A DNA stretch of 64,000 nt from NCBI GenBank assembly GCA_045613345.1, contig JAZLAT010000005.1, positions 67,588-131,587 on the forward strand. The letters run 5' to 3'. Numbering within the stretch: the stretch's first letter is position 1; each line of letters begins with the position of its first letter. Below, piece by piece: positions 889-63,216 of the stretch. The translations under genes and the position numbers were made by a program. This DNA comes from Candidatus Enterousia sp. (lineage in GTDB: Bacteria > Pseudomonadota > Alphaproteobacteria > Rs-D84). A model generated the notes under the pieces. It saw only the letters and a program-made list of their open reading frames with translations. It was not told where the DNA came from and did no database searches.

Positions 889-2970
889 TTATTTTTTCGA
901 ACCCGCACTTTGGGCCCGATCAATCACACCTTCTGCCAAGGTTAATGGCGATAAATTCATCCATTCTGGGTCACCCCGATGTTCGGGCGCGCCACGTTCA
1001 AGTGCGGTTTCACACGGGTTATCGTCCGCCAACCAATTGGTCAACAAATCGCCGGCAATCAATCCAACGCCCGCACTCGCAACCAAGCCGAGTCCCCCTG
1101 TGAACGGCGCAAGCAACAACCCCAATCCCGTCGCCGACAATGCCTTGCCCGCAATAGCCGCGCCACTGATTTTAATATCTGGTTCCGCCAAGTTTCCGGT
1201 TATAGTTATCGTGTTAACTACATTGCCACTGATGGACAATTTGATTCCGCGTACCGGTATGGTTGTTAAAGACAAGTTCAACGTTTCGTTACCTAAATCT
1301 ACATCACCACCAAGCATAACATTGATCGCGTTTGTTTCAATGGCCACTCCATTTTGCGTTTCAATCAATCCATCGCGTATCTTCAAGTTCGCCGCCACCG
1401 CCTTTATCGTCATTTGGTCATATTTTTTCTTGGACGAAAACATATCTTGAATACTGTGCCGCAATGTCGTCAAGAAATCCGCACCATACATATACGCAAC
1501 CAATTCCGAATGAGCCCAACCATTCCCCACAGAATAAACCCGCACGGGACCAGTTATGGTTTTCATAATGTTTGACATATCCTTGCCCATGGCGACCACA
1601 TAAATTTCAAAATCTAATGGCAAATCAGATATAAAATCATGAATATTGATTTCATCTAAAAGTGTTCCAATAGTAATCCCTTTCCCGACACCACCCATTT
1701 CTGCATGTATAACCCCAGATTCTTCGATGTCGCCATTGATTGCCGCAAGCACTTTACCACCGGCAAACCCGGTATCCGCATCGATTCGCAACTTGGTGTC
1801 CCGTACATTTATCTTTACCTTCATATTATCCAAAGATAGATTGCGATACATAATCATCTTGCCAAAATCAACATTCAAAGACACTTGGGTTTTGTACAAA
1901 TATTCCCCATAAAGTGGCATATCATGAAAGACATTTAATTCGCGTCCATTCAAATCTGGGGTTCCATATAATTCTGGGAACAATTCCAAAAGATTTATTT
2001 TCTTGGATGATATATTGGCAACAACTTCTGGCTTTGCCCTGCCCCAATCAAACGAACCAGATAACGTAATATCACTGCCGCGAACCGAAATCGAAGATTT
2101 ATGCAAAGTCAACTTACTGTGTCCCAAACCACCCGCAATATTCACCTTGATTGCCGGCATTTTTGGCATATCAATATTCAACAATTCACCAATCGGACGA
2201 ACATCAGGAATATCGCCTTTGATAATAAAATCAATTGGTATTTTACTTGTTCCTTCCAATGCAACATTCGCAATCAGCGCATCGCCATCCGACGCAAAGG
2301 CAACCTTGACCGGATAAATACGCCGTTCGGAATTATATTTATCAAACGAAACAATAAAAGGAATTGCAGAAGATCCAGGATTTATCCAACCACTATATTC
2401 GCGTGCATCGCCATGATTTGCATGCCGCACATTCATTCTTGGAACAAAGTATTTTTCACCATCAAAAAATACGGTTAAATTACTGATACCCAATGAACCA
2501 AGTCCCGGATCAACAAAAGGATATTCTGGTTTTTCCGAATCAACAGACTCATCGGAATCCGCTGTATAGCCAGTTTTTTCCCAAAAATATTTTCCATCTT
2601 TATCCTTGTCAATATATATCGTCGCATCACGCACAGCAACACGCTGAATCGCCGGACGATTTGTGAACAAAGATATCAAATTTAAATGCACATCAAGTGT
2701 TTTAGCATCAAACAAATTCTTATTTTCTTGCTTCCCCGGAATTACGACATCATGCATAGTCACCCGTGGACGCAACGATAATTTCCACGAAACATCACCC
2801 AAAATTTCAACCTGCATTCCAGTTGACGACCGCAACACACCAAGTATATTATTTTTTATTGTTGTCATATCCATATTATTCAACGCAACGATCACCGCGA
2901 CAACAAACACCGCAACGAACACAAAAACAACACGTGAAATTACAAAAAATTTATTTTTTTTGACTTTCAT
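889..2970 (-). CDS. AsmA family outer-membrane biogenesis protein
   Basis: 693 aa with an N-terminal membrane anchor (MKVKKNKFFVISRVVFVFVAVFVV). Long beta-rich body and a Gly-rich C-terminal hydrophobic segment as in AsmA-family proteins. Starts 8 nt downstream of the rluC-like gene. Confidence 0.65.
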   Translation of the reverse strand: MKVKKNKFFVISRVVFVFVAVFVVAVIVALNNMDMTTIKNNILGVLRSSTGMQVEILGDVSWKLSLRPRVTMHDVVIPGKQENKNLFDAKTLDVHLNLISLFTNRPAIQRVAVRDATIYIDKDKDGKYFWEKTGYTADSDESVDSEKPEYPFVDPGLGSLGISNLTVFFDGEKYFVPRMNVRHANHGDAREYSGWINPGSSAIPFIVSFDKYNSERRIYPVKVAFASDGDALIANVALEGTSKIPIDFIIKGDIPDVRPIGELLNIDMPKMPAIKVNIAGGLGHSKLTLHKSSISVRGSDITLSGSFDWGRAKPEVVANISSKKINLLELFPELYGTPDLNGRELNVFHDMPLYGEYLYKTQVSLNVDFGKMIMYRNLSLDNMKVKINVRDTKLRIDADTGFAGGKVLAAINGDIEESGVIHAEMGGVGKGITIGTLLDEINIHDFISDLPLDFEIYVVAMGKDMSNIMKTITGPVRVYSVGNGWAHSELVAYMYGADFLTTLRHSIQDMFSSKKKYDQMTIKAVAANLKIRDGLIETQNGVAIETNAINVMLGGDVDLGNETLNLSLTTIPVRGIKLSISGNVVNTITITGNLAEPDIKISGAAIAGKALSATGLGLLLAPFTGGLGLVASAGVGLIAGDLLTNWLADDNPCETALERGAPEHRGDPEWMNLSPLTLAEGVIDRAQSAGSKK

Positions 2971-2978
2971 TTTATCAC

Positions 2979-3944
2979 CTATGGCATGGGCAATTCTAAC
3001 AATTCTATAACCGGGCTCATAAAGTCCGGAACGTCGGCACGAAACGATATTATCTTGCCTGTTGATGGATGCCGAAAAGTCAATTTATATGCAAACAAAA
3101 ATAAATTTTTGGTTTTCAAAACCGATTGCAACCCTGCATCCATTTTTTGGCTTTTACCATATAAATCATCACCCACAATTGGCGCATTCAAAGACATTGC
3201 GCTGTGTATTCTTAATTGGTGAGTCCGACCCGTTTGTGGCAAGAATAAAATCCAAGTCAACATTCCCGACGCACGCGCCAAGACACGGTATTCGGTAACG
3301 GCATGATGTGGTCGTGCGCCCGTACCATTTTCCCGCGACGACGAATCAAATACACGTCCTTTTAACATATAATTATCTATGACACCACGCGAATTAGATA
3401 CATCACCATTTAACAAAGCAAGATATTCTTTGTGCGCAATTTTATTTTGAAATTGATGGCTAAGATTTTGTGCCGCATGTTGATTCTTGGCAACAACCAA
3501 CAAACCACTTGTTTCCCGATCCAATCGATGAACCAAAGAAACTTTATGATAAGGAAACAATGCCGCCGCCATTTTATCAATTGATTTTTTTATTCCTGTA
3601 CCGCCTTGGACGGCAAGCCCCGCGGGCTTGTTAAACACGACAATGTCATTGTCGCTGTGGATAATCATTTTTCGCAACTGTTCCAAATCAGACAACGAAA
3701 ATTTTTCACCTGATTCATCTTTTTTAGGTGCAACAGCATATTCAGAAACCGTCGGCGGAATACGAATGCCATCACCTGCATGTAAAATTTCAGTTCCACG
3801 ACAACGACGCGAATTTACACGAATTTGCCCACCGCGGCAAAGCCGATAAAACTCCCGCTGGGGCATAGAAGGGAAATGACGCAAGAACCAACGAAGCAAT
3901 CGCGTTCCATCTTCGACCGGAGAAACAATAGTGACTTCCGCCAT
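2979..3944 (-). CDS. RluA-family 23S rRNA pseudouridine synthase (RluC/RluD-like) with N-terminal S4 domain
   Basis: 321 aa with the catalytic motif HRLDRETSGLLVVAK and the C-terminal GRTHQLRIH motif. Confidence 0.8.
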   Translation of the reverse strand: MAEVTIVSPVEDGTRLLRWFLRHFPSMPQREFYRLCRGGQIRVNSRRCRGTEILHAGDGIRIPPTVSEYAVAPKKDESGEKFSLSDLEQLRKMIIHSDNDIVVFNKPAGLAVQGGTGIKKSIDKMAAALFPYHKVSLVHRLDRETSGLLVVAKNQHAAQNLSHQFQNKIAHKEYLALLNGDVSNSRGVIDNYMLKGRVFDSSSRENGTGARPHHAVTEYRVLARASGMLTWILFLPQTGRTHQLRIHSAMSLNAPIVGDDLYGKSQKMDAGLQSVLKTKNLFLFAYKLTFRHPSTGKIISFRADVPDFMSPVIELLELPMP

Positions 3945-3949: not shown

Positions 3950-4414
3950 TTATTCGCCGTATGTTATTTTGACGATATTATTTCCGTTACCAAGGTTACA
4001 AGAACCAACCGCCCCACCCTGTTTACCATCGGAACTTTGATATCCAACCGAATCGGACCATGCTTTGGTTACAAAATATTCACAATCTGTATTAGACAAT
4101 CCCTTGATAGAAACAATAAATTGACGACTGTTAGACGGGTCAACCGCCAATTCATATGTACCGCCATATGTATTTTTGTTTGACATACCAATCGCACCGA
4201 ATATTGTAGCATTATTTATGTTTGAAAAATCGTCATATTCACCCAACAATTGACGAACACCCGTCACAAGTTGCAAAACCTCTTCATTTACGGCGTTACG
4301 TTTCTGTGTGCGCATAGCCGTAGAAATCATACCAATCGCACCGACCGTTATCACACCCATAATAGCCAACACGCCCAACATTTCAATCATAGAACGACCA
4401 GATTCATATTTCAT
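3950..4414 (-). CDS. Prepilin-type N-terminal cleavage/methylation domain protein (type IV pilin / pseudopilin-like)
   Basis: 154 aa. The N-terminus MKYESG/RSMIEMLGVLAIMGVITVGAIG has Gly, Glu at +5 and a hydrophobic helix. An AAGGAA RBS lies upstream. Confidence 0.55.
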   Translation of the reverse strand: MKYESGRSMIEMLGVLAIMGVITVGAIGMISTAMRTQKRNAVNEEVLQLVTGVRQLLGEYDDFSNINNATIFGAIGMSNKNTYGGTYELAVDPSNSRQFIVSIKGLSNTDCEYFVTKAWSDSVGYQSSDGKQGGAVGSCNLGNGNNIVKITYGE

Positions 4415-4466
4415 TTTTTATTCCTTTGGTTTGATATTTACTCTATTTTATTTTATCATATCAAGT

Positions 4467-5894
4467 ATGAATATTCAATTCAACGATTTAATATCAAATG
4501 CACCCGCCGCACCGGGGGTGTATCGTATGTACGATTCGGATGGGAACCTGCTTTATGTGGGCAAAGCCAAGAATTTGGCGGCACGTTTGGCGCAATATAT
4601 GGACATATCAAAACTTGAATTGCACAAGCAAGTTATGCGTTCGTTGGTCACACGCGTTACATGGGAAACGGTTGCGAACGAATCAGATGCTTTGGTATTA
4701 GAACAAAAACTTATCAAAACCGAAAAGCCAAAATATAACATCATGCTGACCGATGGGAAAATGTACCCTATGTTGGCATTGACAAATCATGAATTCCCAC
4801 GTTTATTAAAATTTCGCGGAAAAATTTCCCAAAAACGCGATGTATACGGTCCATATCCTTCGGTCCAGGCATTAAACGAAACCATAAAAATGATTCAAAA
4901 GGTTTGCCGCCTGCGCACTTGCAACGACACATTTATGCGAAATCGTGTGCGTCCGTGTTTGCTTTACCAAATTGGACGTTGCAGCGCACCATGTACCATG
5001 CCCAACCCTGAATACGGTGAAAACGTAAAATTGGCACGCCGAATATTGACCGGAGACAGTGAACCAATCATCACAGATTTGTCCGCACAAATGAAGAAAT
5101 TATCTGAACAAATGGATTATGAAAATGCGGGATTAATTCGTGATAAAATTGCCGCATTAACAAAAACATCAATTCGCGGTATACAGCGGAATCCGCTGTA
5201 TAGCGAAAAATCAAATGAAAGCATTGATTGGGAAAATACTGTCGCACAAATGGAAAAATGGATTGGTAAAAAAATAAATTATGTTGGTGTATTTGATAAC
5301 TCTCATTTGTTTGGAACAAACCCCGTGGGCGCAATGATAACATTTGGACATAGTGGATTTATTAAAAGCGGTTACAGACATTTCAAATTACGTGACCATG
5401 CACGCGCCGGAAACGACATTGCAATGATGGCGGAATTTGTTGAACGCGCAACTAAAAACAGTCCAGAGCTTGATTTGATAATCGTCGATGGCGGACGTGC
5501 ACAATGGAATATTGCACATAAAGTTGCGCCAAACATCCCGATTCTGGGGGTAACCAAAGGCGAAGTTCGAAATGGTGACGAGCACTTTATAATGCCCAAC
5601 GGAACCGAAGACAGAACAATGAAAAAAGATTCAAAATTATTTTTACTTTTGCGTCGTGTCCGTGATGAAGCGCACAGATTTGTTATAACATATCACCGTA
5701 CATCGCGCGCAAAATCAATGACTGGATCGTGTTTAGACGAAATCGAAGGTATTGGACCAGTTCGTAAAAAATTACTATTGAATCATTTTGGTTCTGTTCG
5801 CGCAATAATGGATGCTGATATCAAATCACTGATGCGCGTTCCAAACCTTGGACGATCAGCCGCCGAAAAAATATATAGCCATTTTCATCAATAA
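4467..5894 (+). CDS. uvrC: Excinuclease ABC subunit C (compact, 475 aa)
   Basis: GIY-YIG N-terminus (PGVYRMYDSDGNLLYVGKAKNL), Cys motif RPCLLYQIGRCSAPC, UVR domain, FDNSH endonuclease domain and C-terminal HhH. I chose the internal ATG at 4467; the track start at 4308 overlaps the divergent pilin-like gene. Confidence 0.85.
   Translation: MNIQFNDLISNAPAAPGVYRMYDSDGNLLYVGKAKNLAARLAQYMDISKLELHKQVMRSLVTRVTWETVANESDALVLEQKLIKTEKPKYNIMLTDGKMYPMLALTNHEFPRLLKFRGKISQKRDVYGPYPSVQALNETIKMIQKVCRLRTCNDTFMRNRVRPCLLYQIGRCSAPCTMPNPEYGENVKLARRILTGDSEPIITDLSAQMKKLSEQMDYENAGLIRDKIAALTKTSIRGIQRNPLYSEKSNESIDWENTVAQMEKWIGKKINYVGVFDNSHLFGTNPVGAMITFGHSGFIKSGYRHFKLRDHARAGNDIAMMAEFVERATKNSPELDLIIVDGGRAQWNIAHKVAPNIPILGVTKGEVRNGDEHFIMPNGTEDRTMKKDSKLFLLLRRVRDEAHRFVITYHRTSRAKSMTGSCLDEIEGIGPVRKKLLLNHFGSVRAIMDADIKSLMRVPNLGRSAAEKIYSHFHQ
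5180..5202. repeat. Perfect 11+1+11 palindrome TATACAGCGGA-A-TCCGCTGTATA inside uvrC
   Basis: Read directly from the sequence. Both arms carry the dispersed CCGCTGTATA motif. The palindrome is translated as GIQRNPLYS. Confidence 0.95.
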
Positions 5895-6543: not shown

Positions 6544-6574
6544 ACCCGCCAAAATTGGCGGGTTAAATTTTTAT
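6544..6574 (+). terminator. Rho-independent terminator after pgsA
   Basis: Stem ACCCGCC / GGCGGGT (6544-6550 / 6557-6563) followed by a T-rich tract. Confidence 0.6.
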
Positions 6575-6599
6575 CTATACACCGGAATCCGCTGTATAG
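6575..6599. repeat. Inverted pair of the dispersed motif (CTATACACCGGA-A-TCCGCTGTATAG) between convergent pgsA and dnaJ
   Basis: 12 bp arms with one mismatch. The right arm is an exact copy of GGAATCCGCTGTATAG. Confidence 0.9.
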
Positions 6600-9932: not shown

Positions 9933-10364
9933 ATGGCAAAGAAAGTATCGTCTTTCAAAAACACTTATGTTATCGATATGCGCGCATTAAGTGAGCGCCC
10001 AGTACAATGGACGGAAAATGGCGCAATTTTACCGATTGAATCGATAAATGGTGCGGCGCCCGCAACCCCCGAAGAATCAATTAAGTTGTTTGCGGAACGC
10101 CCTGTGCGTCGCATGTTGGACCAATATTCTGTACTGTTTCCAATGGTGAACAAAGCGGCACAAACAATTACAGAATATATTGATTTGGACGGCAAGCCTT
10201 TGATTACATTGTATCCCAATAATGATGTTTATAAAAACAACGATGATTGGGAAATGTACCTGGGGCGGGCGGCATTGGACGACCTGCGCGAGGTATATGA
10301 TCGCCAGAAACATACAATGGCGGGAATTGCCGGCGCCCTGCGTCAATTAAAGAAAAATAAATAA
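9933..10364 (+). CDS. Hypothetical protein, 143 aa
   Basis: Intact ORF with an AAAGGGG RBS and its own candidate promoter. I recognise no motif. Confidence 0.5.
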   Translation: MAKKVSSFKNTYVIDMRALSERPVQWTENGAILPIESINGAAPATPEESIKLFAERPVRRMLDQYSVLFPMVNKAAQTITEYIDLDGKPLITLYPNNDVYKNNDDWEMYLGRAALDDLREVYDRQKHTMAGIAGALRQLKKNK

Positions 10365-21353: not shown

Positions 21354-21495
21354 ATTTACTCCTTTTGGTTTACACGACACGATTATATTGTAAAAAATAT
21401 TCGTATGCCGCAGGTATGATTGCCTAGGGACCAAATCGCAAAAAAACTGACCCCGATTTTCGGGGTCAAACACATGACAAACAAAGGGTTTTTTC

Positions 21496-40125: not shown

Positions 40126-40128
40126 TAT

Positions 40129-40156: not shown

Positions 40157-40181
40157 CATACTGAAACCAAGGAATGATAAA

Positions 40182-41054: not shown

Positions 41055-41057
41055 AAT

Positions 41058-42739: not shown

Positions 42740-42745
42740 CGCGAT

Positions 42746-43759: not shown

Positions 43760-43766
43760 AAAAACA

Positions 43767-44552: not shown

Positions 44553-44561
44553 TTGATTCCC

Positions 44562-45461
44562 CTACATTTTATTTATCATCGCATCAGCAAAAGAACCCGG
44601 TATCGGATTTTCCGCCTGTTTATAAGTAGTCTTTTGAAAGAACGCACCCGCCGTAACGATTTTAAACAAATGCTCATCAAACGGTTTATCCGCATATTTC
44701 CACCACAGCGCATGCGTATCATCTTGGTCAACATGCGCCATAAGATTCATACGCTTGCGCGCACGCGGGTCATTCAAAACCAATGTCTTGAACAACAACT
44801 GGTGCATAAAGTAATCAAAACTGTGGTCTTCATGAGTCCAATAATCTAAAATCATCGCCCGCCAAGCATCAAGCAAGTATGCCCCCTTGCGCGCGCGAAT
44901 AAAGCAATTTTGAACATAACTGTATGGGCTGCCTACTGTGTCACCTGCAAGATACATAAAGAAATCTTGATCAACAATCCAATCGGGAATTGGTGCAGTC
45001 ACAAAACCAGTCGAATCTAACCAAAACCCACCATGTTCATACAACAATTCTACCCGGCAAATATCGGCAAAATGTGCATTTTTAATTTTACCTGCGCGAC
45101 GCTTTTCTATAATTTCGGGCGGCAAAGTTATATAATCAAAAACAGTCTTTTCATCTAAAACAATCAATTCTTGTTTACAATGGCGACGAACACTGCGGAA
45201 ACAGGCCTTGACCAATGGTGGTGCATTATCTTCGCCTTGCAACCATAACGAAAAAATTTTTTCATCCCTGTCATTTTTAACAACCTGACGTTCTTCAATT
45301 GCCGCCGCCGCAGGCAAATAGCGTTCAAAATATTTCGGTATTGCTTCTGCCAATATAGCGCTGCGGATTTGACGACGACGCGCACGCGGCCGCCAAAACC
45401 AGTTTAATATATGCGCCCGCCAAATAATATCAGCCAATGCAACAAATCTTTCTGAATTCAT
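44562..45461 (-). CDS. Capsular polysaccharide synthesis / DXD sugar-binding glycosyltransferase-like protein (tentative)
   Basis: 299 aa. IFSLWLQGEDNAPPLVKACFRSVRRHC and HFADICRVELLYEHGGFWLDST resemble Caps_synth / Gly_transf_sug families. Confidence 0.5.
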   Translation of the reverse strand: MNSERFVALADIIWRAHILNWFWRPRARRRQIRSAILAEAIPKYFERYLPAAAAIEERQVVKNDRDEKIFSLWLQGEDNAPPLVKACFRSVRRHCKQELIVLDEKTVFDYITLPPEIIEKRRAGKIKNAHFADICRVELLYEHGGFWLDSTGFVTAPIPDWIVDQDFFMYLAGDTVGSPYSYVQNCFIRARKGAYLLDAWRAMILDYWTHEDHSFDYFMHQLLFKTLVLNDPRARKRMNLMAHVDQDDTHALWWKYADKPFDEHLFKIVTAGAFFQKTTYKQAENPIPGSFADAMINKM

Positions 45462-45472
45462 ATTTTATACCT

Positions 45473-46546
45473 TTATTCTTCATCGTTATTTGATTCGACT
45501 TCGTCATCATCAATCGGCCCAGTTGTCATTTCTTCGGCAATACCATTTGCACGAGCCATAATCTTGTCCAACAATTCTTGTTGTGCTTCGGGATGGTCAC
45601 GCAACCAAGCACGCGCATTTGCCTCACCTTGACCGATTCGTTCATTGTTATATGAATAGAAACTTCCCGCTTTATCAATAAAGTCATATTTGACACCCAT
45701 ATCCAAAATCTCGCTTATACGGGAAATTCCTTCGCCATACATAATCTTGAAATCGACCGTACGGAACGGTGGCGCAACTTTATTTTTAACAACTTTGACA
45801 CGGGTTTCGTTTCCAATAACATTTTCTTTGTCTTTGATTGCACCAGTGCGGCGAATATCCAAACGCACCGAAGCATAGAATTTTAACGCGTTACCACCAC
45901 TTGTTGTTTCAGGATTACCGAACATAACACCAATTTTCATACGAATTTGGTTAATAAATATCAAAAGTGTATTGCTGCGCGAAACACTGCCCGCAAGTTT
46001 TTTCAATGACTGGCTCATCAGTCGTGCGGTTGTTCCAACGAAACTGTCACCGATGTTACCTTCTAATTCTGCCTTGGGTACCAATGCCGCCACAGAATCA
46101 ATAACCACGACATCAACCGCCCCAGACTTAATCAAAGTATCCGCAATTTCCAATGCCTGCTCGCCAGAATCAGGTTGTGATATAATAAGGTTTGCAACAT
46201 CAACGCCCAGCTTTTTTGCATAACTTGGGTCCAATGCATTTTCTGCATCAATATATGCACAAGTGCCACCTTTCTTTTGGGCTTCGGCAACGGCGTGCAA
46301 CGCCAATGTTGTCTTACCCGAACTTTCTGGTCCGTATATTTCGACAATACGACCGCGTGGATACCCACCAATACCCAAAGCAATATCCAAACCCAATGAC
46401 CCCGAAGATATCGCTTCGATATTCTGTTGAGAACCGTCGCCCATTTTCATAATTGCTTCTTTACCGAATTGTTTTTGAATTTGTGCCAATGCAGATTCTA
46501 ATGCTGGATTTTTGGCACCAGTATTTACAACTTCTTTCTTTGCCAT
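45473..46546 (-). CDS. recA: Recombinase RecA
   Basis: 357 aa with Walker [10 protein letters not shown], the [38 protein letters not shown] loop region and an acidic tail. Confidence 0.95.
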
Positions 46547-46572
46547 AATTTGCCCCTTTTCTTGGTATAAAA

Positions 46573-46601
46573 ATCATACAAAGAAAAAAACAGATATGCA
46601 A
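46573..46601 (-). promoter_or_regulatory. Candidate sigma70 promoter for recA
   Basis: On the minus strand, TTGCAT (46601-46596), a 17 nt spacer, then TATGAT (46578-46573). I could not see an SOS box. Confidence 0.35.
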
Positions 46602-47786
46602 TTATTTTTTAGACAATAAAACCATAACACTTAATGCGCCAATTACAGCGGTCACAAACCAAACGGCGGATGTTGCACCAAATAATGTGATACAGCCTGC
46701 CCCAATTATTGGTGCAATAACACTTGGCAAATTTGCGCTTGTGCGGAAAACGCCATAAAATCGTGTTTGTTGGGACTTTTTTGCATTATCAAAGAACAAC
46801 AAATCGTGCACAGGTTCCATAAAAGCACCCGAAAATTGCCACAATACGAATATCGCCAACACCGGAAATCCGGTCGCAAACGCCGCCCATACCGAAAAAG
46901 CCGCAAAACTGCCGAAACCCAACACAAGCCAGATTTTTTTACCAAATCTTCGCACCAAGCGCCCCATAACTTCGGTCAAAACCAAATATGGAATAATACC
47001 CAAAGTCAAAACCAAACCCAGCGTGTCTTTGGAAAATCCATTTTCAATAACCACAATTGGCACATACAAATATCGCATCGCACGCAAAGAATAAAAACCA
47101 AAATTTACCGTATACGCACGCATCATACCCGGGGTTCGGAAAAAAGCCTTGGTATTTCGCCACAACGCACGAACGGTTGTCCGCGGACTGACCGGTTTAA
47201 TTTTTTTATCTTCTTGGGTTAAATGGAAATACTTAAAGAAAACCCATGCACCAAAATATATCGCCGAAGACAAGAAAAACGCGGAACGATTTCCGAATCG
47301 CGTCGCAACCCAAACCGCCAACATCGGCGCCAATAAAGCGCCCACATTTACCCATAAATGATACCGCGCATTTAACTTTGCCATACCTGCATCGCCCGAA
47401 AAATCAGACATAAAAAGTGGTATTAAAAGTGCGGTAAGTGTTATCGCAAAACCACTTGTATAGTCCAAGACAATAAACGTTCGCGGCAACACAGAAAAAC
47501 CCATCATCGCGTAACATGCAATCATGGTCAGCAACGCGAAATAGAAAACTTTGACCTTGGAAAATTGGCGAAAAATTTGATTTGCAAACAAGGCAACAAT
47601 CATACAGAACACAGAATAAATCGCGACATATATACCAACAATTGCAGAACTTTGGAATATACTTAATATAACCAAAGAATATACAGCATTATAAACACCA
47701 TCGGCAAACCCAGTAAAAATACCAAGGTTAGCAAAAGAAAAACCGTTAACCGAACCCCGCGCCGAAATATATTTGTCGCGTGCCAT
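46602..47786 (-). CDS. MFS transporter
   Basis: 394 aa with about 12 predicted hydrophobic helices in two halves. Substrate unknown. Confidence 0.6.
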   Translation of the reverse strand: MARDKYISARGSVNGFSFANLGIFTGFADGVYNAVYSLVILSIFQSSAIVGIYVAIYSVFCMIVALFANQIFRQFSKVKVFYFALLTMIACYAMMGFSVLPRTFIVLDYTSGFAITLTALLIPLFMSDFSGDAGMAKLNARYHLWVNVGALLAPMLAVWVATRFGNRSAFFLSSAIYFGAWVFFKYFHLTQEDKKIKPVSPRTTVRALWRNTKAFFRTPGMMRAYTVNFGFYSLRAMRYLYVPIVVIENGFSKDTLGLVLTLGIIPYLVLTEVMGRLVRRFGKKIWLVLGFGSFAAFSVWAAFATGFPVLAIFVLWQFSGAFMEPVHDLLFFDNAKKSQQTRFYGVFRTSANLPSVIAPIIGAGCITLFGATSAVWFVTAVIGALSVMVLLSKK

Positions 47787-47844
47787 ACTCTCTCCCCCAT
47801 AAATTGCACGGATATTATATCATAAAAAAGGAACAACCGCAAAA

Positions 47845-47870
47845 AGAAACGCACCATTCGGTGCGTTTCT
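47845..47870 (-). terminator. Rho-independent terminator after secB
   Basis: Perfect 11 bp stem AGAAACGCACC / GGTGCGTTTCT with an ATTC loop. T-rich tracts lie on both strands. Confidence 0.7.
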
Positions 47871-47871
47871 T

Positions 47872-48312
47872 TTATTTATTGTCTGGGGCTTTTTGATTAC
47901 GTTTTTCGTACAGGTCGGCGAAATCAACCACCTGCATAGCAAAAGGTGGAAATCCTGATTCTGCGGTCAAACGCGTAACCAGGCTACGTACCGCCGGGAA
48001 CAATAATGTCGGAACATCAATCAACAGTGTGCGTTTTTTCGCTTCTTCATCTTTTTCTTCTTCCATTTGAACCAATCCAGAATAAGTCGCCTCTATCAAA
48101 AAGATAGATTTAGAATCCGCTTTTAATTTAGAATGAATTTTTGTCACTAAATCAACCATATAAAGATTTTTTTCCGAACCTTTGACCTGCATATCAATAT
48201 TGATTTCTAATTCTGCCTGACCATTATCTTGCTTAAAGAATAAATCCGGCACATTTGGACTTTCAAAAGAGATATCTTTCAAGAATTGAGATATAATATT
48301 AAACTTCGCCAT
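47872..48312 (-). CDS. secB: Protein export chaperone SecB
   Basis: 146 aa with MAKFNIISQFLKDISFESPNVP and LLFPAVRSLVTRLTAESGFPP. Confidence 0.85.
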   Translation of the reverse strand: MAKFNIISQFLKDISFESPNVPDLFFKQDNGQAELEINIDMQVKGSEKNLYMVDLVTKIHSKLKADSKSIFLIEATYSGLVQMEEEKDEEAKKRTLLIDVPTLLFPAVRSLVTRLTAESGFPPFAMQVVDFADLYEKRNQKAPDNK

Positions 48313-48393
48313 GATAATTGCTCCTTTTTTTATGACTCGTTTTATGATAATATAGCATTAAAGAATTTTTTTACAAGTGGGGGGAACAAAAAA

Positions 48394-49488
48394 ATGAAAA
48401 TTTATATTTTGCGGGGAATCGCAGCGGCGGCATTTGGGTTTTTATTGGCATCTTGCGATGTTTCGACGCCGACACATACGGGTGATGATTCGGTTGTACC
48501 ACACGCGAATTTAAAAAAAGTTTCTTATTCTGATTTGCCGGGTTGGCGCGAAGACGACGTCCGTTATGCACTGCAAGCCTTTCGTAATTCATGCAAAGCC
48601 AAGATTCAATATCGTGGACATGTAGTTCCCGACCGTGAATTATTTAATGAAAAATGCAACATGCTGCCCAGTGCCAGTGCCGACACCGCAACAGTTCGCG
48701 CTTGGTTTGAATCGCATTTTCAACCATACAAGATATATAATGATAATGGCACAAGCAAGGGAACTTATACCGGATACTATTCACCGGTAATTCCTGGGTG
48801 TCGCACCAAGACGGCGGAATGTAATGAACCACTTATGGGAATTCCAACCGACGGACGAAATTACAAAGGCGTTTCTAAAAAAGACATCGTTGAAAAGAAA
48901 ATTGGTCGCGTACTCTATTGGGCAAACATTGTCGATGTTCAAAACATTCAAATCCAAGGAAGCGGTATGTTAAAACTGTCCGATGGCACAATGGTAAAGT
49001 TAAACTTTGCGGCTGTCAACGATATGCCATTTAAATCTATTGGTGAACAACTGCGCAATCGTGGCATTCGACCCGAAGGCGGTTATTCTGCGGACGCCGT
49101 TTGGACACATTTGAAAAAGAATCCAAAATTGGCCAAAGAAGTAATTTATAACAATCCGCGATATGTATATTTCTATGAATCGGTGCCGCCCGATGTGATT
49201 GGCAAATTGGGAACACCACTGTCTAAAATACGCAGTATCGCGATGGACGATTCGCTGTATACATTGGGTTTGCCTGTATACATCGATACAAACCTTTCGA
49301 ACGGACAAAAGTTTCGCCGCCTTATGATTGCCCAAGATACCGGCAGCGCGATACGCGGTTGGGTGCGTGCCGATATATTCTTTGGCAAAGGTGATGAAGC
49401 ATATGAATACGCACACGGTCAACACGCCCAAGGCGAAATGTATATTTTAATGCCAAAAGAATACACATATGTCAAACCAACAAAATAA
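48394..49488 (+). CDS. mltA: Membrane-bound lytic murein transglycosylase A
   Basis: 364 aa from the ATG at 48394 with lipobox LLASC. MltA-type 3D-domain C-terminus (DTGSAIRG...DIFFG.G). Confidence 0.8.
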   Translation: MKIYILRGIAAAAFGFLLASCDVSTPTHTGDDSVVPHANLKKVSYSDLPGWREDDVRYALQAFRNSCKAKIQYRGHVVPDRELFNEKCNMLPSASADTATVRAWFESHFQPYKIYNDNGTSKGTYTGYYSPVIPGCRTKTAECNEPLMGIPTDGRNYKGVSKKDIVEKKIGRVLYWANIVDVQNIQIQGSGMLKLSDGTMVKLNFAAVNDMPFKSIGEQLRNRGIRPEGGYSADAVWTHLKKNPKLAKEVIYNNPRYVYFYESVPPDVIGKLGTPLSKIRSIAMDDSLYTLGLPVYIDTNLSNGQKFRRLMIAQDTGSAIRGWVRADIFFGKGDEAYEYAHGQHAQGEMYILMPKEYTYVKPTK

Positions 49489-51734: not shown

Positions 51735-52313
51735 ATGATTGGAAAATTGCAAGGCATTGTTGATTATATTGCGCCCGACCATGTTATTTTGATGACGGGC
51801 GGGGTTGGATACCGGGTCTATACACCGGAAAACCTGCGACACGGCGAAAATGTGACACTTTGGATTGAAACAATTGTGCGCGAAGATTCGATTCGCCTGT
51901 TTGGGTTTGGAACACTAGCGACACAAAACCTGTTTAATATGCTGATTGGTGTATCTGGGGTTGGACCACGTGTGGCGATGGCGATAATGTCGACAATAAA
52001 ACCCGAAACATTAATGACGGCAATCGCGACCGGCGATGCCAAAACAATTTCAACCGCGCCGGGCGTTGGGAAAAAAGTTGCCGAAAAAATCATAGTGGAA
52101 TTAAAATCCCGTGTTGGCGGCGCATCGATTGCATTGAACTTTGGTGCGGAGACGGGCGGCGCCCTGCCCGACTTGCTGGCGGCATTGGAATCATTAGGGT
52201 ACAGACGAATGGATATTGTCGATATGGCACAAAAATTGGTATCTGAAAATCCGACCGCCGATGTATCAAAACTGGTGCCACTTGCCCTGCGTGAAATCAG
52301 TGGGAATAAATAA
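51735..52313 (+). CDS. ruvA: Holliday junction DNA helicase subunit RuvA
   Basis: 192 aa with MIGKLQGIVDYI, HhH motifs (GVGPRVA, GVGKKVAEKI) and a C-terminal domain III. Confidence 0.9.
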   Translation: MIGKLQGIVDYIAPDHVILMTGGVGYRVYTPENLRHGENVTLWIETIVREDSIRLFGFGTLATQNLFNMLIGVSGVGPRVAMAIMSTIKPETLMTAIATGDAKTISTAPGVGKKVAEKIIVELKSRVGGASIALNFGAETGGALPDLLAALESLGYRRMDIVDMAQKLVSENPTADVSKLVPLALREISGNK

Positions 52314-52314
52314 G

Positions 52315-53613
52315 ATGAACAATGACACAATTTTTGCACTGTCCAGTGGCCATGGAAAATCAGGCGTTGCGGTAATCCGCATATCGGGCGATAATCTTGA
52401 ATCGTTTGCTAAAAAAATTATCGGCTGTGCCACCTTGGCACCCCGGCGGGCGTATTTTACAAACCTGTGCGATAACATGGGCGAATTGATTGATCAATGC
52501 GTTGTCATATATTTTGCCGCACCGCACAGTTTCACCGGCACCGACATAATTGAAATTCAATGCCACGGCGCACCGGCGGTGATAAATAAAATATTTGATT
52601 TCCTGCATACAAATAATATGCGAATCGCCACCCCAGGCGAATTTTCGCGCCGCGCTTTCTATAACAACAAAATGGATTTGTCTGATGTTGATGGATTGGC
52701 GGCATTGCTGGACGCCCAAACAGACCGGCAACGCGCCGCGGCATTAAAGTCTATGACCGGCGGCGACAGCGACATTTACAACGATTGGCGCAACCAAATG
52801 TTGGACATATCGGCATGCATTTTTGCGATGACCGACTATGCACCTGATGATTTGCCTGCGAATATTTTTGACACGGTTATGCAAAGAATAAAAACTCTCT
52901 ATACAGCGGTTTCCGCCGCATTGGCGAAATACACCGCATCGCGTGCAATCAGGGCTGGCGTGAATATTGCGATTGTTGGCGAAACAAATGTTGGCAAATC
53001 TTCACTGTTTAATAAAATGGTTGGAACGGCGCGCGCCATAGTATCAGATGTCCCCGGCACCACACGTGATGTGGTTTCAATGAATTTGGATATTGATGGA
53101 TATTTGGTAAATTTGTCTGACACGGCGGGTTTACGCGACACAACCGATTCGGTGGAACGAATCGGCATCGAACGTTCGCACGCCGAAATCGCAAATGCAG
53201 ATATAATAATTCATGTAATAAATCCGAACGATTCGGCACAAAAAATCGGCAACAACGAAATCTTGGTCGTCAACAAATGCGACACAACCGAATCGCGGGA
53301 CATAAAAAACGCAATCTATGTTTCGGCAAAAAATGGCATTGGGATAAACGAACTGATGCGCGAATTGCGCACACGCATTCGCGACATTACCGGAAACGGC
53401 GAATCGATTTTAATGATAAACGCACGCACCTATGATTTATTACGCACGGCGGCAACGGAATTGAAAAATGCCATTGAAAAATCCAACGGCGATTATGACA
53501 TTATGTCGGAACACGTGCGCTATGCCGCGGACGCAATCGGAAAAATTCTGGGCACCATTACCACCGCCGAAGTCATCGACAAAACCTTTTCGCAACTATG
53601 TTTAGGTAAATAA
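52315..53613 (+). CDS. mnmE: tRNA modification GTPase MnmE
   Basis: 432 aa from the ATG at 52315 (MNNDTIFALSSGHGKSGVAVIRISG). G domain GETNVGKSSL and a C-terminal CLGK. Confidence 0.9.
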   Translation: MNNDTIFALSSGHGKSGVAVIRISGDNLESFAKKIIGCATLAPRRAYFTNLCDNMGELIDQCVVIYFAAPHSFTGTDIIEIQCHGAPAVINKIFDFLHTNNMRIATPGEFSRRAFYNNKMDLSDVDGLAALLDAQTDRQRAAALKSMTGGDSDIYNDWRNQMLDISACIFAMTDYAPDDLPANIFDTVMQRIKTLYTAVSAALAKYTASRAIRAGVNIAIVGETNVGKSSLFNKMVGTARAIVSDVPGTTRDVVSMNLDIDGYLVNLSDTAGLRDTTDSVERIGIERSHAEIANADIIIHVINPNDSAQKIGNNEILVVNKCDTTESRDIKNAIYVSAKNGIGINELMRELRTRIRDITGNGESILMINARTYDLLRTAATELKNAIEKSNGDYDIMSEHVRYAADAIGKILGTITTAEVIDKTFSQLCLGK

Positions 53614-55318: not shown

Positions 55319-56089
55319 ATGAAAATACTTACACTAAATATAAATTCTATTCGCGCACACATTGAATCTTTTATTGATATTTTGCGCGGTGGCGAATACG
55401 ACACAATTTTGGTCCAAGAATTAAAGGTTGAAAATGCCGCATTTCCGCACAATTTATTAGAAGAATACGGATATAACATCAAAGTTTTCGGACAAAAAAG
55501 TTGGAACGGGGTCGCGACTTTTTCTAAATTTTCATTGGAAGATACTGTTAGGGGCTTGCCGAATTTTCCCGATGTGAATGCACGATTTCTGGAAACTGTG
55601 GTTGATGGTCGCGTGCGTATAATAAATGTCTATATGCCGAACGGGGAATCCGAAGAATCGCCAAAATTTCAATATAAACTTCAATGGATGCGGGCTTTTA
55701 CGGACTATATTGCACCGTATTTGAACAGTGAAGAACCTGTTATAATTGGTGGCGATTTTAATGTTGCAATTTTGGATCGCGATGTATGGAATCCGAAAAA
55801 CTATATCGGGTCCAGTATATCTGCGCCCGCCGCACGTGCGATTATGACCGAATGGCTGGACTCTGGTTGGGTTGATGCATGGCGAACATTCCACCCCGAT
55901 GAAGATGATTACACTTGGTATGGATATCGTGGTCGTGACACTGTTGGCAATAGACAAGGACTTCGACTTGATTATTTCTTGGCAAATCGGGTTGCTGCAA
56001 AAATGATGCGTGCATGCGAAATAGATACCGCACCACGCATGGCAAATAAACCAACCGACCATTGTGGATTGATGTTGAAAATCGCTTAG
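55319..56089 (+). CDS. xth: Exodeoxyribonuclease III
   Basis: 256 aa from the ATG at 55319 (MKILTLNINSIRAH). Also QELK, GDFNV and a C-terminal SDH-like PTDHCGL. Confidence 0.85.
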   Translation: MKILTLNINSIRAHIESFIDILRGGEYDTILVQELKVENAAFPHNLLEEYGYNIKVFGQKSWNGVATFSKFSLEDTVRGLPNFPDVNARFLETVVDGRVRIINVYMPNGESEESPKFQYKLQWMRAFTDYIAPYLNSEEPVIIGGDFNVAILDRDVWNPKNYIGSSISAPAARAIMTEWLDSGWVDAWRTFHPDEDDYTWYGYRGRDTVGNRQGLRLDYFLANRVAAKMMRACEIDTAPRMANKPTDHCGLMLKIA

Positions 56090-58605
56090 TCACGTTCCGT
56101 AGCACGTGCAAAATCATCGAAATTTTTATATTTCGCTTCTGATGTTTTCATATATTTATAAGGCGCGCCACCCACAGAATACATATTAAATAACTCTGTA
56201 ACTTTATCGTGTGCGGCACGCATCATTTCTGCGGTTGTTTCCGAATCGTATTCTATGATACATGCATCATTGGAACGCAATTGCAAAAATTTCATAACAG
56301 GTGTTGCACAAGGCCTATACATTGGAAATCCGCCACTTTTTAACATCAAGGCTTCAAGTGGTAATTGTGGCATATTACCATTCATCAATTGCAATTTTGT
56401 TGGTGCAGCCCCAGTTTTTATATCTAAAACACCGTTGTCCCAAATTCTGTCTGCACGCGCCGCCACAGTGCGACCAGCAATTTGTATACAACCTTCGATT
56501 TCGGTTTTAGCATCGACGGTTTTGTTCAGCACATCGGCGGCAATCGGGGCGATTTCAAGAAATCGGCGATGCCAAAAATGAAACAACAAACTGTTTTTGC
56601 CCAAAATTTCATATGCCCGCGAATCCATATTTTGGACCAACCAATCCGCCGTCACATTTGCGGGTGCATTTTCCAAAACCCCATGCACCAAGTTCCCAAA
56701 ATCACGTGCATCGGGTAATGCCCAATAATCGTCAATCACATGCAAACGCAGTATATGACGCACATAGAACGCATATGGATTATGTATCAAAAGTTCCAAT
56801 TCGGTAACATATACATTTGACCAATCGGCGGGCGGCATCGGGTCAGAATAATCCAATGGACGCGATTCAACAATATCACGTGCGCGCACCGCGTTCAAAA
56901 TATCTTGTGCTGATTTTGTATCAAAGTTTCCACGTGCCACAATCACGCGCGACAAGAATCTTGATTCTTGGGTCGCCACACCACCAGAAATACGGCTGCG
57001 TGTCCAATAAACTTGCGCACCACAAGACAAATTCATAAAATCAAGTGACATCAAAGATACTTTATGATTCGGACTTGGTAAACCAACTTGCGCCGAAATC
57101 TTACGCGGCAACCACGGATTTTCATACCCCATTGACGGAAACATACCTTCATTAAGCCCCATCAATATAACAACATCCGCGGTCTGCATACGCGATTCAA
57201 TTGTTCCCAAAACCGCAACACGCCCCGAATCCGTCATTTTTCCACGTACCCGTACACCCGATAAAGCGTCCGCAATAAATGCACGCGCCGCCGAAATATC
57301 TACATGAATGTTTTGCAAATTCAAACAATCAGAAAGTTTTTTTATTGTATTCCACACCTGCACAGATGCGTCGTCATCCAATACAAATTTTGGTGCAAAC
57401 TTATCGATATATTTTTCAACAATTTCTGCAACCGTATTAAACAAATCGAAATTATTTACCGAATATATTTGTGAAAAAACCCCTGTTCCGCTTTCAATCC
57501 AATCATCAAGCAAATTCAACACAGCGCGTCCCGCGGGCGTTGCACCACCCGAAACACCACCCGAAAAATCTGCATCAATTCCACGACGCAAAAATTCGGA
57601 TTGCAACCTTTGGTTTCCGGCGGCATCAGGCGTAATAATCAAAACCGTTTTATTATCACAAATCGCGCGCGATGTTATTTCTGCAACCGTGGCAACTTCT
57701 TCGGATTCGCGCAATGATTCTATTAGGTGACAATTTGATAAATCATAATTTGAAAAATCGCTGTATACATTGGAAAAAGCCGCATTCATAAAATCAATAT
57801 GCGATGAACCAACATCTATTTCATGTACACAATTTGGCGACACACCAATTTCTTGCAAGAATTTATATTCCGAATTATATGGGTTTGTATCCAATTCAAA
57901 ATCTTCCACCCGCCCAGAAATCTTGCCCGAAAGGATTATACGCCCATTTTGCATTTGTGCAATTTCACACATCAACTTTCGTGTTGTTGGCACACTTGCG
58001 GTTGAACCACAAACAATAATCAAAGAATCATTTATTGGTAATTTTTTAATATAATCACACCACGCGTATACAGCGGAATTTCTGGCTTTCGTCTCACTGA
58101 CCCGCCCACCAAAAACATCATTTGTCACACGTGATATAATTGATAATATCTGGGCTTTGTCCCGAAAATGAGCCGCGTATCTTGAATCTATTAATTCATT
58201 CCAATCAACATCCGCAATATCAATACCACTGTTTTCCAAATAATCTTGCATTGTCACCAAAGTTCGAGCGATTGGAATCGCCGCCGAAATATTACCAACC
58301 ATTGGCAACCCCGATAATATATACGCCATCGCAACAACGCGTTCCATTACCGAAACAGTTAGAACATTTGAATCTTCCAATTCTTCATCTTCAACACCTT
58401 CACCCAAAGACACAAGGCGTGGCAATATAAGCGCGCCGCCCGCTTTTTCAGCAAGCATTTTTTCGACCACACGAACCGCACGACGACTTGGCAAGAATAT
58501 CAACATATTTGGAATTGATACGCCCGATTCGGTCATAACACGCCACAGTGCATCAAGGATTTTAGCAGGATTAGAAGCACAAAAAATATTTTTATTTGAT
58601 TCCAA
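56086..58605 (-). CDS. addB: Double-strand break repair protein AddB (alphaproteobacterial type)
   Basis: 839 aa. Degenerate helicase-like N-terminus and a PD-(D/E)XK-like C-terminal region. Called from overall family resemblance; no addA lies adjacent. Confidence 0.6.
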   Translation of the reverse strand: MESNKNIFCASNPAKILDALWRVMTESGVSIPNMLIFLPSRRAVRVVEKMLAEKAGGALILPRLVSLGEGVEDEELEDSNVLTVSVMERVVAMAYILSGLPMVGNISAAIPIARTLVTMQDYLENSGIDIADVDWNELIDSRYAAHFRDKAQILSIISRVTNDVFGGRVSETKARNSAVYAWCDYIKKLPINDSLIIVCGSTASVPTTRKLMCEIAQMQNGRIILSGKISGRVEDFELDTNPYNSEYKFLQEIGVSPNCVHEIDVGSSHIDFMNAAFSNVYSDFSNYDLSNCHLIESLRESEEVATVAEITSRAICDNKTVLIITPDAAGNQRLQSEFLRRGIDADFSGGVSGGATPAGRAVLNLLDDWIESGTGVFSQIYSVNNFDLFNTVAEIVEKYIDKFAPKFVLDDDASVQVWNTIKKLSDCLNLQNIHVDISAARAFIADALSGVRVRGKMTDSGRVAVLGTIESRMQTADVVILMGLNEGMFPSMGYENPWLPRKISAQVGLPSPNHKVSLMSLDFMNLSCGAQVYWTRSRISGGVATQESRFLSRVIVARGNFDTKSAQDILNAVRARDIVESRPLDYSDPMPPADWSNVYVTELELLIHNPYAFYVRHILRLHVIDDYWALPDARDFGNLVHGVLENAPANVTADWLVQNMDSRAYEILGKNSLLFHFWHRRFLEIAPIAADVLNKTVDAKTEIEGCIQIAGRTVAARADRIWDNGVLDIKTGAAPTKLQLMNGNMPQLPLEALMLKSGGFPMYRPCATPVMKFLQLRSNDACIIEYDSETTAEMMRAAHDKVTELFNMYSVGGAPYKYMKTSEAKYKNFDDFARATERD

Positions 58606-61578: not shown

Positions 61579-61594
61579 ACAAAGGGGAAACAAA

Positions 61595-61840: not shown

Positions 61841-61845
61841 AAACA

Positions 61846-63216
61846 TCAATCTAAATCACGCAATTCGATATTGTCACCATCGACGATAACGATTTTGCCC
61901 GATTCGATTCGAAACATTTTTACGATACTACGCACATCGCGCTTGGCGAACAAATCCGCTGTATAGACCGATTTTACACCACGCAACAAACAAAGTTGAT
62001 TTGCGACAATTTCGCAATCGCAAACGGCGATAATTTGTGTATCTGGGCGACGACAAGAAATTTCAGTCACTGCACCTGTTTCTCGCGCAAAAACAATTAT
62101 CGCCGCCGCATGATTCAAGAAAGCCATAGAAGATACTGAACGCGACCAATCATTTTCAGACGATTTTTCAGAACGCGCCCAATCAGCCGGATGCGCAATC
62201 GCGTCGTTATCAGAAAAAGTTAAAATTTTATCCATAGTTTCAACCACACGCAAAGGATTCGAACCAATAGTTGTTTCTTCGGATGTCATTGTCGAATCCA
62301 CATGTAAATAAGCCGCACTTGCTACATCGCTAACCTCGGCACGCGTCGGGAATTCGGATTCCACCATTGAACCAAGCATCTGGGTTGCCATTATAACTGG
62401 TCGATTAAGCCGACGACATTCACGAATAATTTGTCGTGAAATTGCCGGAACTTGTTCAAATGGTAATTCGACCGCCAAATCACCACGCGCAATCATAACA
62501 CCATCCGCGGTGGCGGCAATTTCTGAGATTCTTTCAACTGCATTCTTGCGTTCTATCTTTGCAATAATCTTAATCGGTGCGGATGTGCGTTCAGTAATAA
62601 AATCACGCACAGTGGCAATATCTTTTGGACTTTGTACAAAAGAAACCGCAACCAAATCAGGATTCTTGGTCAAGGCATATTCCAAATCTGCCCTGTCCTT
62701 GTCGGTCAATGCATTCATATCAATATCTGTATCTGGGACATTAAATCCACGACGCGACCAAATTTCGGTTCCACGAATAACACGAGTTTTTACCGAATCA
62801 GGTGCAACATCTATGACCTGCATTTCTATTTTTCCATCATTTAACAAAATTCTTTCACCAACCCGCAAAGACCGCAAAACATCTGCATCTGGCAAATTTA
62901 CCCGATTCGAATTTCCAGGTGCCGGATTTGAATCAAACACAAAAGTCTGACCCACACTTAATGGATATTTTTCTTCGGTTAAAAAATTACCGATTCGGTG
63001 TTTTGGACCTTGCAAATCAATCATTATTCCAACCGGCAAATTTATTTCGCGTGATATCTTGCGAATTATATCAATTTTGTGTCCTTGGGCTTCGCCTGTA
63101 TCATGACTGAAATTTATACGAAACACATTAACCCCCCCCGCAATCATATTACGCAACATGTGTTCTGATTCTGACGAAGGGCCAATCGACGCAGTAATCT
63201 TGGTAAATATTGACAT
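61846..63216 (-). CDS. pyk: Pyruvate kinase
   Basis: 456 aa with TKITASIGPSS, MIARGDLAVE and VIMATQMLGSM motifs. Confidence 0.9.
   Translation of the reverse strand: MSIFTKITASIGPSSESEHMLRNMIAGGVNVFRINFSHDTGEAQGHKIDIIRKISREINLPVGIMIDLQGPKHRIGNFLTEEKYPLSVGQTFVFDSNPAPGNSNRVNLPDADVLRSLRVGERILLNDGKIEMQVIDVAPDSVKTRVIRGTEIWSRRGFNVPDTDIDMNALTDKDRADLEYALTKNPDLVAVSFVQSPKDIATVRDFITERTSAPIKIIAKIERKNAVERISEIAATADGVMIARGDLAVELPFEQVPAISRQIIRECRRLNRPVIMATQMLGSMVESEFPTRAEVSDVASAAYLHVDSTMTSEETTIGSNPLRVVETMDKILTFSDNDAIAHPADWARSEKSSENDWSRSVSSMAFLNHAAAIIVFARETGAVTEISCRRPDTQIIAVCDCEIVANQLCLLRGVKSVYTADLFAKRDVRSIVKMFRIESGKIVIVDGDNIELRDLD

Follow-up and report, generated by a model that had tools for sequence, protein, structure and literature searches.

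Sequence-specific recognition of self DNA for transformation has been described only in the Neisseriaceae and the Pasteurellaceae, by means of the DNA uptake sequences (DUS) of the former and the uptake signal sequences (USS) of the latter. Neisseriaceae genomes of 2.2-2.4 Mb hold from 943 to ~6000 DUS, which change in situ into lineage-specific dialects; two dialects one nucleotide apart can share one genome, overlapping dyads occur, and the ratios of perfect to singly mismatched DUS range from 1:1.15 to 1:1.45 (PMC3630211). USS are of non-insertional origin and show long-term site stability (PMC1626085), and ComN has been predicted as their receptor (PMC12616744). More than 90% of the inverted DUS and USS pairs are located in terminators. 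Here, a dispersed word sharing several of these traits is described in a 64-kb stretch of DNA (the window, that is, the whole stretch analysed) from an uncultured gut alphaproteobacterium related to Candidatus Enterousia, in the order Rs-D84. As read from the orthologous sites of relatives, the concerted change of this word from one clade-specific spelling to another is the main new result. The window has ~43% G+C, is 92% coding and contains housekeeping genes. Its ParE, AddB-like and AsmA proteins find matches only in metagenome-assembled genomes of uncultured Alphaproteobacteria from the gut of humans and animals, where the clade is abundant in human and ruminant metagenomes; the AsmA relatives include one, 53% identical, that bears the name Candidatus Enterousia sp. 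Members of Rs-D84, Enterousia included, have reduced genomes of ~0.7-1.6 Mb (PMC12306168).

The word analysed, CCGCTGTATA(G), on both strands, had been pointed out in a preliminary description of the window as occurring exactly seven times, and all seven copies are present, four of them on the plus strand (2559, 5193, 6589 and 61956) and three on the minus strand (5180, 52900 and 58067). Dinucleotide-preserving shuffles of the window give an expectation of 0.04 copies, with none out of 100 shuffles reaching seven, whereas an order-3 Markov model predicts 0.08 and an order-5 model trained on the same sequence 0.55. The claim that the frequency exceeds what composition would produce is thus sustained within the window, and the feature is real and non-random. 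In a blind ranking of k-mers the word and its sub-words came top for over-representation at k = 8, 9, 10 and 11; the enrichment amounts to ~90-fold or more in the window and extends to 84 kb of DNA belonging to two close relatives. Exact copies of the 16-mer GGAATCCGCTGTATAG stand at the three loci reported for it (2554, 5188 and 6584), and eight matches to it with three mismatches or fewer are found against 0.22 expected. As for one-mismatch copies of CCGCTGTATA, the two listed earlier (6576 and 49252) exist, but the total is seven rather than two, with further copies at 17368, 25428, 42729, 51819 and 57758. The consensus is accordingly sharp, seven exact copies standing against seven one-mismatch copies that are distributed over 30 possible variants, a pattern typical of USS according to Redfield et al. 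(PMC1626085). TGTATA occurs 60 times in the window, 16 of them preceded by CCGC (7), CCAA (5) or CCGG (4). The wider family follows the consensus WWTCC[GA][CGA]TGTATA[GC] and comprises ~17 half-sites, distributed over several frames and lying in either orientation; four of them make up two tight hairpin pairs. This places the length of the word at roughly 10-12 nt, with a core [CG]TGTATA[GC] that usually carries WWTCCG on its 5' side. Most copies lie in genes, in several frames and in both orientations relative to them. The reading frame Y-T-A-D/V that had been noted as common to some copies is indeed seen three times, although the names of two of the genes had been swapped, since the copy at 52900 is in mnmE and that at 61956 in the pyruvate kinase gene. 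A conserved peptide was rejected as the cause of the word in view of the several frames and both orientations of its copies. Wider searches were uninformative: a scan of a 596-Gb genome collection with a 14-mer pattern, too short for such a volume, returned single chance matches in unrelated taxa; a scan of JGI metagenomes with the 23-nt palindrome gave no match, the clade of the window being apparently absent there; and a literature search for the word retrieved primers only.

The recurrence of the word in related genomes was addressed in syntenic loci of graded relatives, covering a few tens of kb per genome in the parE/uvrC/asmA block (L120-L124 and L131-L133) and in the addB/mnmE/pyk/comEC block (L125-L130), with orthologous sites compared by site-wise blastn. 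The two closest relatives (73-84% identity in AsmA, 75-80% in AddB) use the word of the window, the 8-mer GCTGTATA being present 9 times versus 1.0 expected in one and 11 times versus 0.6 in the other, counts that include sites orthologous to those of the window and are hence not independent. Other relatives employ dialects changed by one letter. The spelling TGTATAG of the window's clade becomes CGTATAG in a second clade, CGCATAG in a third and [CT]ACATAGCGC in a fourth, and these spellings form a one-step series (TGTATAG, CGTATAG, CGCATAG, CACATAG). In L129 and L130, [CG]CGTATAG is found in fmt (as a pair), truA, comEC (three sites), mnmE, pyk and ruvA; in L120-L124, WWWC[GA]TG[CT]ACATAGCGC is found in rluC, in uvrC and as a pair adjoining dnaJ; and L126 contains TGTATAG and CGTATAG sites together. 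Among 18 orthologous comparisons (L129, L130 and L133), a T>C change at the base 5' of GTATA was detected in 12 and was the sole type of change there, with differences at the five GTATA positions themselves in 5 of 90 cells. Words of the second clade are enriched as well in a block devoid of the uvrC and dnaJ sites (11 versus 2.9 and 10 versus 2.4 expected). The comEC gene (2809-4755 in L125, with orthologues in L126, L129 and L130) carries three motif sites, including an inverted pair, each in the dialect of its clade. In the same manner, all clades have a hairpin at the orthologous position immediately behind the dnaJ stop codon, with both arms in the clade's own spelling, be it TGTATAG, CGTATAG, CGCATAG or CACATAGCGC (Table 1).

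A survey of UvrC extended the comparison to 80 loci from JGI metagenomes, for ~85 relatives in all and 69 distinct sequences in the pairing counts. A hairpin at the uvrC position is present in most of the ~85 relatives, its arms switching dialect. In 57-64 of the 69 sequences its six outermost base pairs, TATAC[GA]/[CT]GTATA, are formed, and the pair that separates the first two spellings covaries from G:C (50 sequences) to A:U (7 sequences), a change that also alters a UvrC residue between Arg and Gln. In the window, the left arm encodes a conserved G-I-Q-R and the right arm falls within the only linker that varies in a protein conserved at 74-92% elsewhere.

How the copies originate can be followed in the same alignments. 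These are gap-free in uvrC, mnmE, pyk, addB, comEC, fmt and truA, the copies differing by substitution and not by insertion; in the right arm of the uvrC pair, for instance, AATCCGCTGTATAGCG of the window replaces AAACGTGTACATAGCG position by position. The protein segments in which copies lie are variable, and sites have been gained, lost and degraded among relatives. The 10-nt core is 89-90% identical between the window and the relatives at 73-84% AsmA identity, versus 78-83% for the 60-nt flanks.

With respect to the pairs, two hairpin-forming inverted pairs had been proposed, in uvrC and between pgsA and dnaJ. Both exist, with folding energies of -14.2 kcal/mol (z = -6.4) for the uvrC pair and -5.9 kcal/mol for the spacer pair at 6575-6599, but the latter is not the terminator of this intergenic region. 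That role belongs to a separate bidirectional intrinsic terminator hairpin, ACCCGCC-AAAATT-GGCGGGT, at 6544-6563, and a terminator function of the word pair was rejected on this ground. The terminator hairpin begins with AAAAACACCCGC, which is present three times in the window (here and at ~25450 and 31276). A run of T after the orthologous dnaJ-side pair is found only in L133 and L121. Around 40% of the half-sites are engaged in inverted or overlapping dyads, and of the 13 unpaired sites, 5 are accompanied by a partner arm that matches at 6 or more of 10 positions, where chance would give 15%. The loop between arms varies from 3 to 7 nt, and overlapping tail-to-tail versions exist too. Conversely, two exact copies, in addB (58067) and pyk (61956), lack any partner arm and are nevertheless conserved and follow the dialect switch. 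These copies, together with the variable loop length, indicate that the asymmetric word is a unit in its own right. The half-site CTGTAT is similar to the gammaproteobacterial SOS box; a LexA box was nonetheless rejected, the orientation of the arms being wrong for it and the sites lying inside genes.

Table 1. Copies of the word, orthologous hairpins and other features of the window (coordinates refer to the window).
Feature	Position	Strand	Context	Counterpart in relatives
Single copy with full GGAATCCGCTGTATAG	2554-2569	+	in asmA (889-2970, - strand), antisense, read Y-T-A-D	decayed in L131, imperfect inverted pair in L132
Perfect inverted pair TATACAGCGG-AAT-CCGCTGTATAG	5180-5203	.	in uvrC
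Inverted pair CTATACACCGG-AAT-CCGCTGTATAG	6575-6599	.	between dnaJ stop codon (6606) and true terminator
Variant CCGCCGTATA, spelling of the second clade	17368-17377	+	in radical-SAM gene (16691-18004)
Family member CCAATGTATA	21125-21134	-	in open reading frame 20781-21473
Family member CCGGTGTATA	25428-25437	-	in open reading frame 24886-25536
Family member CCGGTGTATAG	42729-42739	+	ends a glycosyltransferase gene (41909-42739), its TAG serving as stop codon
Two overlapping half-sites TCGCTGTATACATTGG, common palindrome TGTATACA	49252-49267	.	in mltA (48286-49488)	kept in L126, L129 and L130
Family member CCGGTGTATA(G)	51819-51828	-	near 5' end of ruvA (51735-52313)	CCGCCGTATAG in L126, CCGGCGTATAA in L130
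Copy GGAAACCGCTGTATAG	52899-52914	-	in mnmE (52216-53613), read Y-T-A-V; imperfect partner arm, 7/10	identical in L125 and L126, TCGCCGTATAG in L129, TCACCGTATAG in L130
Family member CCAATGTATA(G)	56316-56325	-	in AddB-like nuclease gene (56086-58605)
Two overlapping half-sites TCGCTGTATACATTGG (palindrome TGTATACA)	57758-57773	.	in AddB-like gene
Exact single copy	58067-58076	-	in AddB-like gene, sense strand, no partner arm	CTGCTGTATA in L125 and L126, GACGTATAC in L130
Exact single copy	61951-61966	+	in pyruvate kinase gene (61846-63216), read Y-T-A-D, no partner arm	CCGGTGTATAG in L126, CCGGCGTATAG in L129 and L130
dnaJ-side hairpin, window			CCTATACAGCGG-ATT-CCGGTGTATAGA
dnaJ-side hairpin, L143			CTCTATACGCCGG-TTT-CCGGCGTATAGA
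dnaJ-side hairpin, L133			CTCTATGCGCCGG-AAA-CCGGCGCATAGA	same arms in L136
dnaJ-side hairpin, L121			GCGCTATGTGCATG-AAATC-GTGCACATAGCGC
Type IV prepilin-like gene	3950-4414	-	154 aa, G|RSMIEML, two Cys, adjoins uvrC
Start of comEC	~63855-64000	+	runs off window end	75% identical to a relative's ComEC
tRNA gene	14863-14935	-
tRNA gene	22287-22359	+
Second word ACCGAATCG	e.g. 4047, 7530, 8880, 9547, 19600, 27343, 27797, 53145, 53287, 58525, 58948, 61554, 62991

The word being sharp, over-represented and asymmetric, of substitution origin, placed in genes and spacers both singly and in pairs, and subject to concerted dialect change, it may tentatively be regarded as a DUS/USS-like self-recognition word with dialects, a reading favoured by analogy and to which we attach somewhat less than an even chance. 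If right, it would be the first uptake tag outside Neisseriaceae and Pasteurellaceae. The traits held in common with both systems are the substitution origin, the sharp consensus and the clade dialects in situ. Like DUS, which are read by ComP, the word is short, non-palindromic and over-represented, genic in several frames as well as intergenic, single or in inverted pairs, and split into lineage dialects that differ by one or a few bases; overlapping dyad pairs are formed, DNA-repair genes bear copies (here uvrC, addB and ruvA), and the coexistence of TGTATAG and CGTATAG in L126 parallels the presence in S. muelleri of both simDUS and kingDUS. It differs from DUS in being unrelated in sequence, in lacking a conserved CTG-core context and in its host, an alphaproteobacterium of Rs-D84. 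With USS, of which there are Hin-type and Apl-type versions in the Pasteurellaceae, it shares the point-mutation origin, stable sites, a very sharp consensus and clade-specific types (PMC1626085), while USS are flanked by AT-rich segments and reach ~1500 copies in 1.8 Mb, compared with a short W-rich 5' stretch and far fewer copies here.

Under the DUS/USS-like reading, a sequence-specific reader, most plausibly the surface DNA receptor of a pilus/ComEC/DprA pathway, would prefer DNA that carries the word, and such biased uptake followed by RecA-mediated replacement would spread and maintain the word by point substitution. The word would settle in tolerant parts of core genes, some copies remaining single and others forming tight inverted pairs. 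Drift of the reader's preference by one base, with the dispersed copies following, would then give rise to clade-specific dialects. Biased uptake coupled to recombination would thus offer a ready mechanism for the concerted switch.

Part of the machinery that such a pathway would need appears in the loci compared. The pilin-like gene reported at 3950-4414 encodes a real prepilin (G|RSMIE) with a weak similarity to TcpA and is a candidate part of a DNA-uptake machine; the Arg at +1 after the cleavage Gly seems unusual. The uvrC open reading frame was called at 4308-5894 from a GTG at 4308, overlapping this opposite-strand pilin gene; alignment with 475-aa relatives places the real uvrC start at ~4467. 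The prepilin is 76-98% conserved across dialect clades, and most of its changes are confined to the stretch that separates the two cysteines. The idea that it is a receptor tracking the dialects was set aside, this degree of conservation being uninformative without more clades. The ComEC-like N-terminus at the end of the window was likewise corroborated; the comEC genes of relatives encode DUF4131 and Competence domains. The syntenic neighbourhoods of relatives include dprA, recA, TcpQ and secretin genes. In the close relative L131 (17186-19828), TcpQ-domain and secretin genes are found ~2 kb upstream of dprA, with rpsT, plsY and an unannotated gene in between. Taken together, this gene content points to a type IVb pilus of Tcp-like kind in an organism whose genome is reduced.

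Several observations weigh against an uptake function. Compared with the 1 site per 0.4-2.4 kb of DUS and USS, the word is sparse, with an exact core every ~9 kb and a half-site of the family every ~4 kb, a density ~2-20 times lower than that of DUS; from 6.6 to 52.9 kb there is no exact copy at all. Extrapolation to a genome of ~0.9 Mb, a size assumed from Rs-D84 relatives, gives roughly 100-250 copies. The single copies are split 7:3 toward the minus strand, a bias that is not statistically significant but is compatible with polarity. The pairs are not concentrated in terminators, and four of five are intragenic (uvrC, fmt, comEC and lnt), the intergenic one adjoining a terminator without forming it. 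In distant clades, where the word is found at few sites, 33 of 36 dialect words near uvrC occupy three fixed positions, which fits a site-specific function with a shared reader as well. On the side of the machinery, the only pilin in these loci is Tcp-like and highly conserved across dialects, and neither a ComP-like or ComN-like minor pilin nor any other pilin, comEA, comF, pilT or pilus ATPases was seen in the few tens of kb examined per genome. ComEC and DprA, for their part, occur in many bacteria without known transformability. Of the original proposal of an uptake-signal-like or other genome-wide signal, the sharp word, the dialects and the substitution origin speak in favour, and the low density and the position of the pairs against.

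The strongest competitor, possible though less probable than the DUS/USS-like reading, is that the copies are sites for an intracellular reader unrelated to uptake, such as a protein that organises the nucleoid or chromosome, a factor of repair or recombination or a protein that binds RNA hairpins, fixed at given positions in core genes and co-evolving with that reader. The stability of site positions across the order agrees well with it, as exemplified by the uvrC hairpin and its paired outer positions, and so does the finding that nearly all dialect words of distant clades lie at three or four recurrent positions. The high proportion of half-sites in dyads, the excess of partner arms beside single sites, the simultaneous dialect change in both arms and a density like that of site-specific binding-site sets point in the same direction. 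Nevertheless, a loop of variable length and overlapping tail-to-tail forms are hard to square with a fixed-geometry dimer on duplex DNA, exact copies devoid of a partner arm are conserved and still switch dialect, and regulatory sites usually have a less sharp consensus. A role of the single copies at the RNA level is disfavoured by their occurrence in both orientations relative to transcription, and no candidate for such a reader was identified in this analysis. Of about the same probability, and deserving consideration, is a genome-wide system of the reduced-genome gut Alphaproteobacteria of Rs-D84 that would be undescribed so far and correspond neither to an uptake sequence nor to a known repeat class. 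It would consist of a 10-12-nt word and ~25-nt hairpins at fixed positions inside core genes (uvrC, comEC, addB, ruvA, mnmE, fmt and pyk), the specificity of its reader drifting base by base with all sites following (TGTATAG > CGTATAG > CGCATAG > CACATAG).

A Chi-like hotspot for an AddAB-type nuclease, that is, a species-specific mark of self DNA in double-strand-break repair, is improbable, even though an AddB-like PD-(D/E)XK nuclease is encoded in the window. The word resembles Chi in being short, species-specific, enriched in core genes and possibly linked to recombination, and the spacing of 1 per 4-9 kb is close to that of Chi in E. coli. The 7:3 preference of single copies for the minus strand might also be read as polarity, given a plus-strand GC skew that is negative across most of the window, with one sign almost throughout; on a contig of L132/L126 the sign of the skew is equal on both sides of dnaA. 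This preference, however, falls short of significance, and Chi functions in a single orientation, is strongly co-oriented with replication and forms no inverted pairs, so that tight inverted pairs and overlapping dyads at conserved positions would not be expected. The motif moreover exceeds the length of known Chi sites, which is 5-8 nt. Chi sequences are species-variable and over-represented in core genomes (PMC3630211).

That the copies are remnants of a miniature mobile palindrome of the REP/RAYT or MITE type spread by insertion, an alternative already raised in the preliminary description, is practically ruled out by the gap-free, base-for-base replacement of orthologous sequence; the complete unit forms a palindrome of 25 nt and lineage specificity is a trait of REP families too, but most of the copies lie in frame inside genes of a window that is 92% coding, half-sites stand alone, positions are conserved across the order, and no transposase gene was seen in any locus examined. 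REP and BIME sequences are lineage-specific iterated palindromes as well, though they are extragenic insertions, whereas the traits of REP/RAYT and MITE elements (extragenic location, insertion versus empty sites) are absent here. The cyanobacterial HIP1 is found inside genes in all frames. It is nevertheless a perfect 8-bp palindrome, in contrast to an asymmetric 10-12-nt word that also functions alone. Equally hard to credit is a reader-free origin of the pattern in codon usage, oligonucleotide bias or mismatch repair with a context bias, for which the presence of other skewed words (CGAWTCG, 50 versus 18 expected; GAWTC, 232 versus 16 for GASTC) and the Y-T-A frame of some copies might be invoked, and which accounts neither for the excess over the order-5 Markov expectation nor for copies in multiple frames and on both strands, leaving unexplained a concerted switch at a single position with invariant neighbours.

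If the DUS/USS-like reading holds true, the word would be the third independent self-DNA recognition system, implying that such tags evolve repeatedly, and within-species recombination would be suggested as important in small-genome symbionts. The dialect series provides a natural experiment in the co-evolution of a reader and its dispersed sites, and offers clear pairs for binding comparisons, either as cores (TGTATAG versus CGTATAG, CGCATAG and CACATAGCGC) or as longer words (CCGCTGTATAG, CCGCCGTATAG, CCGGCGCATAG and CGTGCACATAGCGC). Even without a link to uptake, a concerted one-base switch at many intragenic sites calls for explanation, and the dialect words could be put to use as clade markers for metagenomic contigs.

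Some other features of the window are worth recording. An Rfam scan produced no family at gathering threshold beyond the two tRNAs, and no convincing parS site was found, all 10 matches having three mismatches, with 3.6 expected by chance. At 9933-12183, next to parE, synteny is broken with respect to L132, L133 and L120-L124: most relatives have dnaA and dprA ~1-5 kb from parE, and the window and L131 have ruvX and gatC instead. The region from 40000 to 48000, with a G+C content of 37% at 40-44 kb and no exact copy of the main word, contains a glycosyltransferase and rhamnan-type polysaccharide cluster in which two adjacent genes (43726 and 44516) have nearly identical 5' ends. Words containing CACGTG are enriched, namely CACACGTG in the window (9 versus 1.0 expected), CACGTGCA in L130 (11 versus 1.3) and GCACGTGC in L133 (6 versus 0.26). 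A second over-represented word, ACCGAATCG, is present 13 times in the window versus 1.5 expected and is part of the odd palindrome ACCGAWTCGGT, which includes CGAWTCG. It is found in several frames and enriched in every relative clade, showing, unlike the main word, no dialect variation. It contains GANTC, the methylation site of CcrM, and the imbalance in the window between GAATC or GATTC (232) and GACTC or GAGTC (16) could mean either that a restriction site of GAGTC type is avoided or that GAWTC is selected for.

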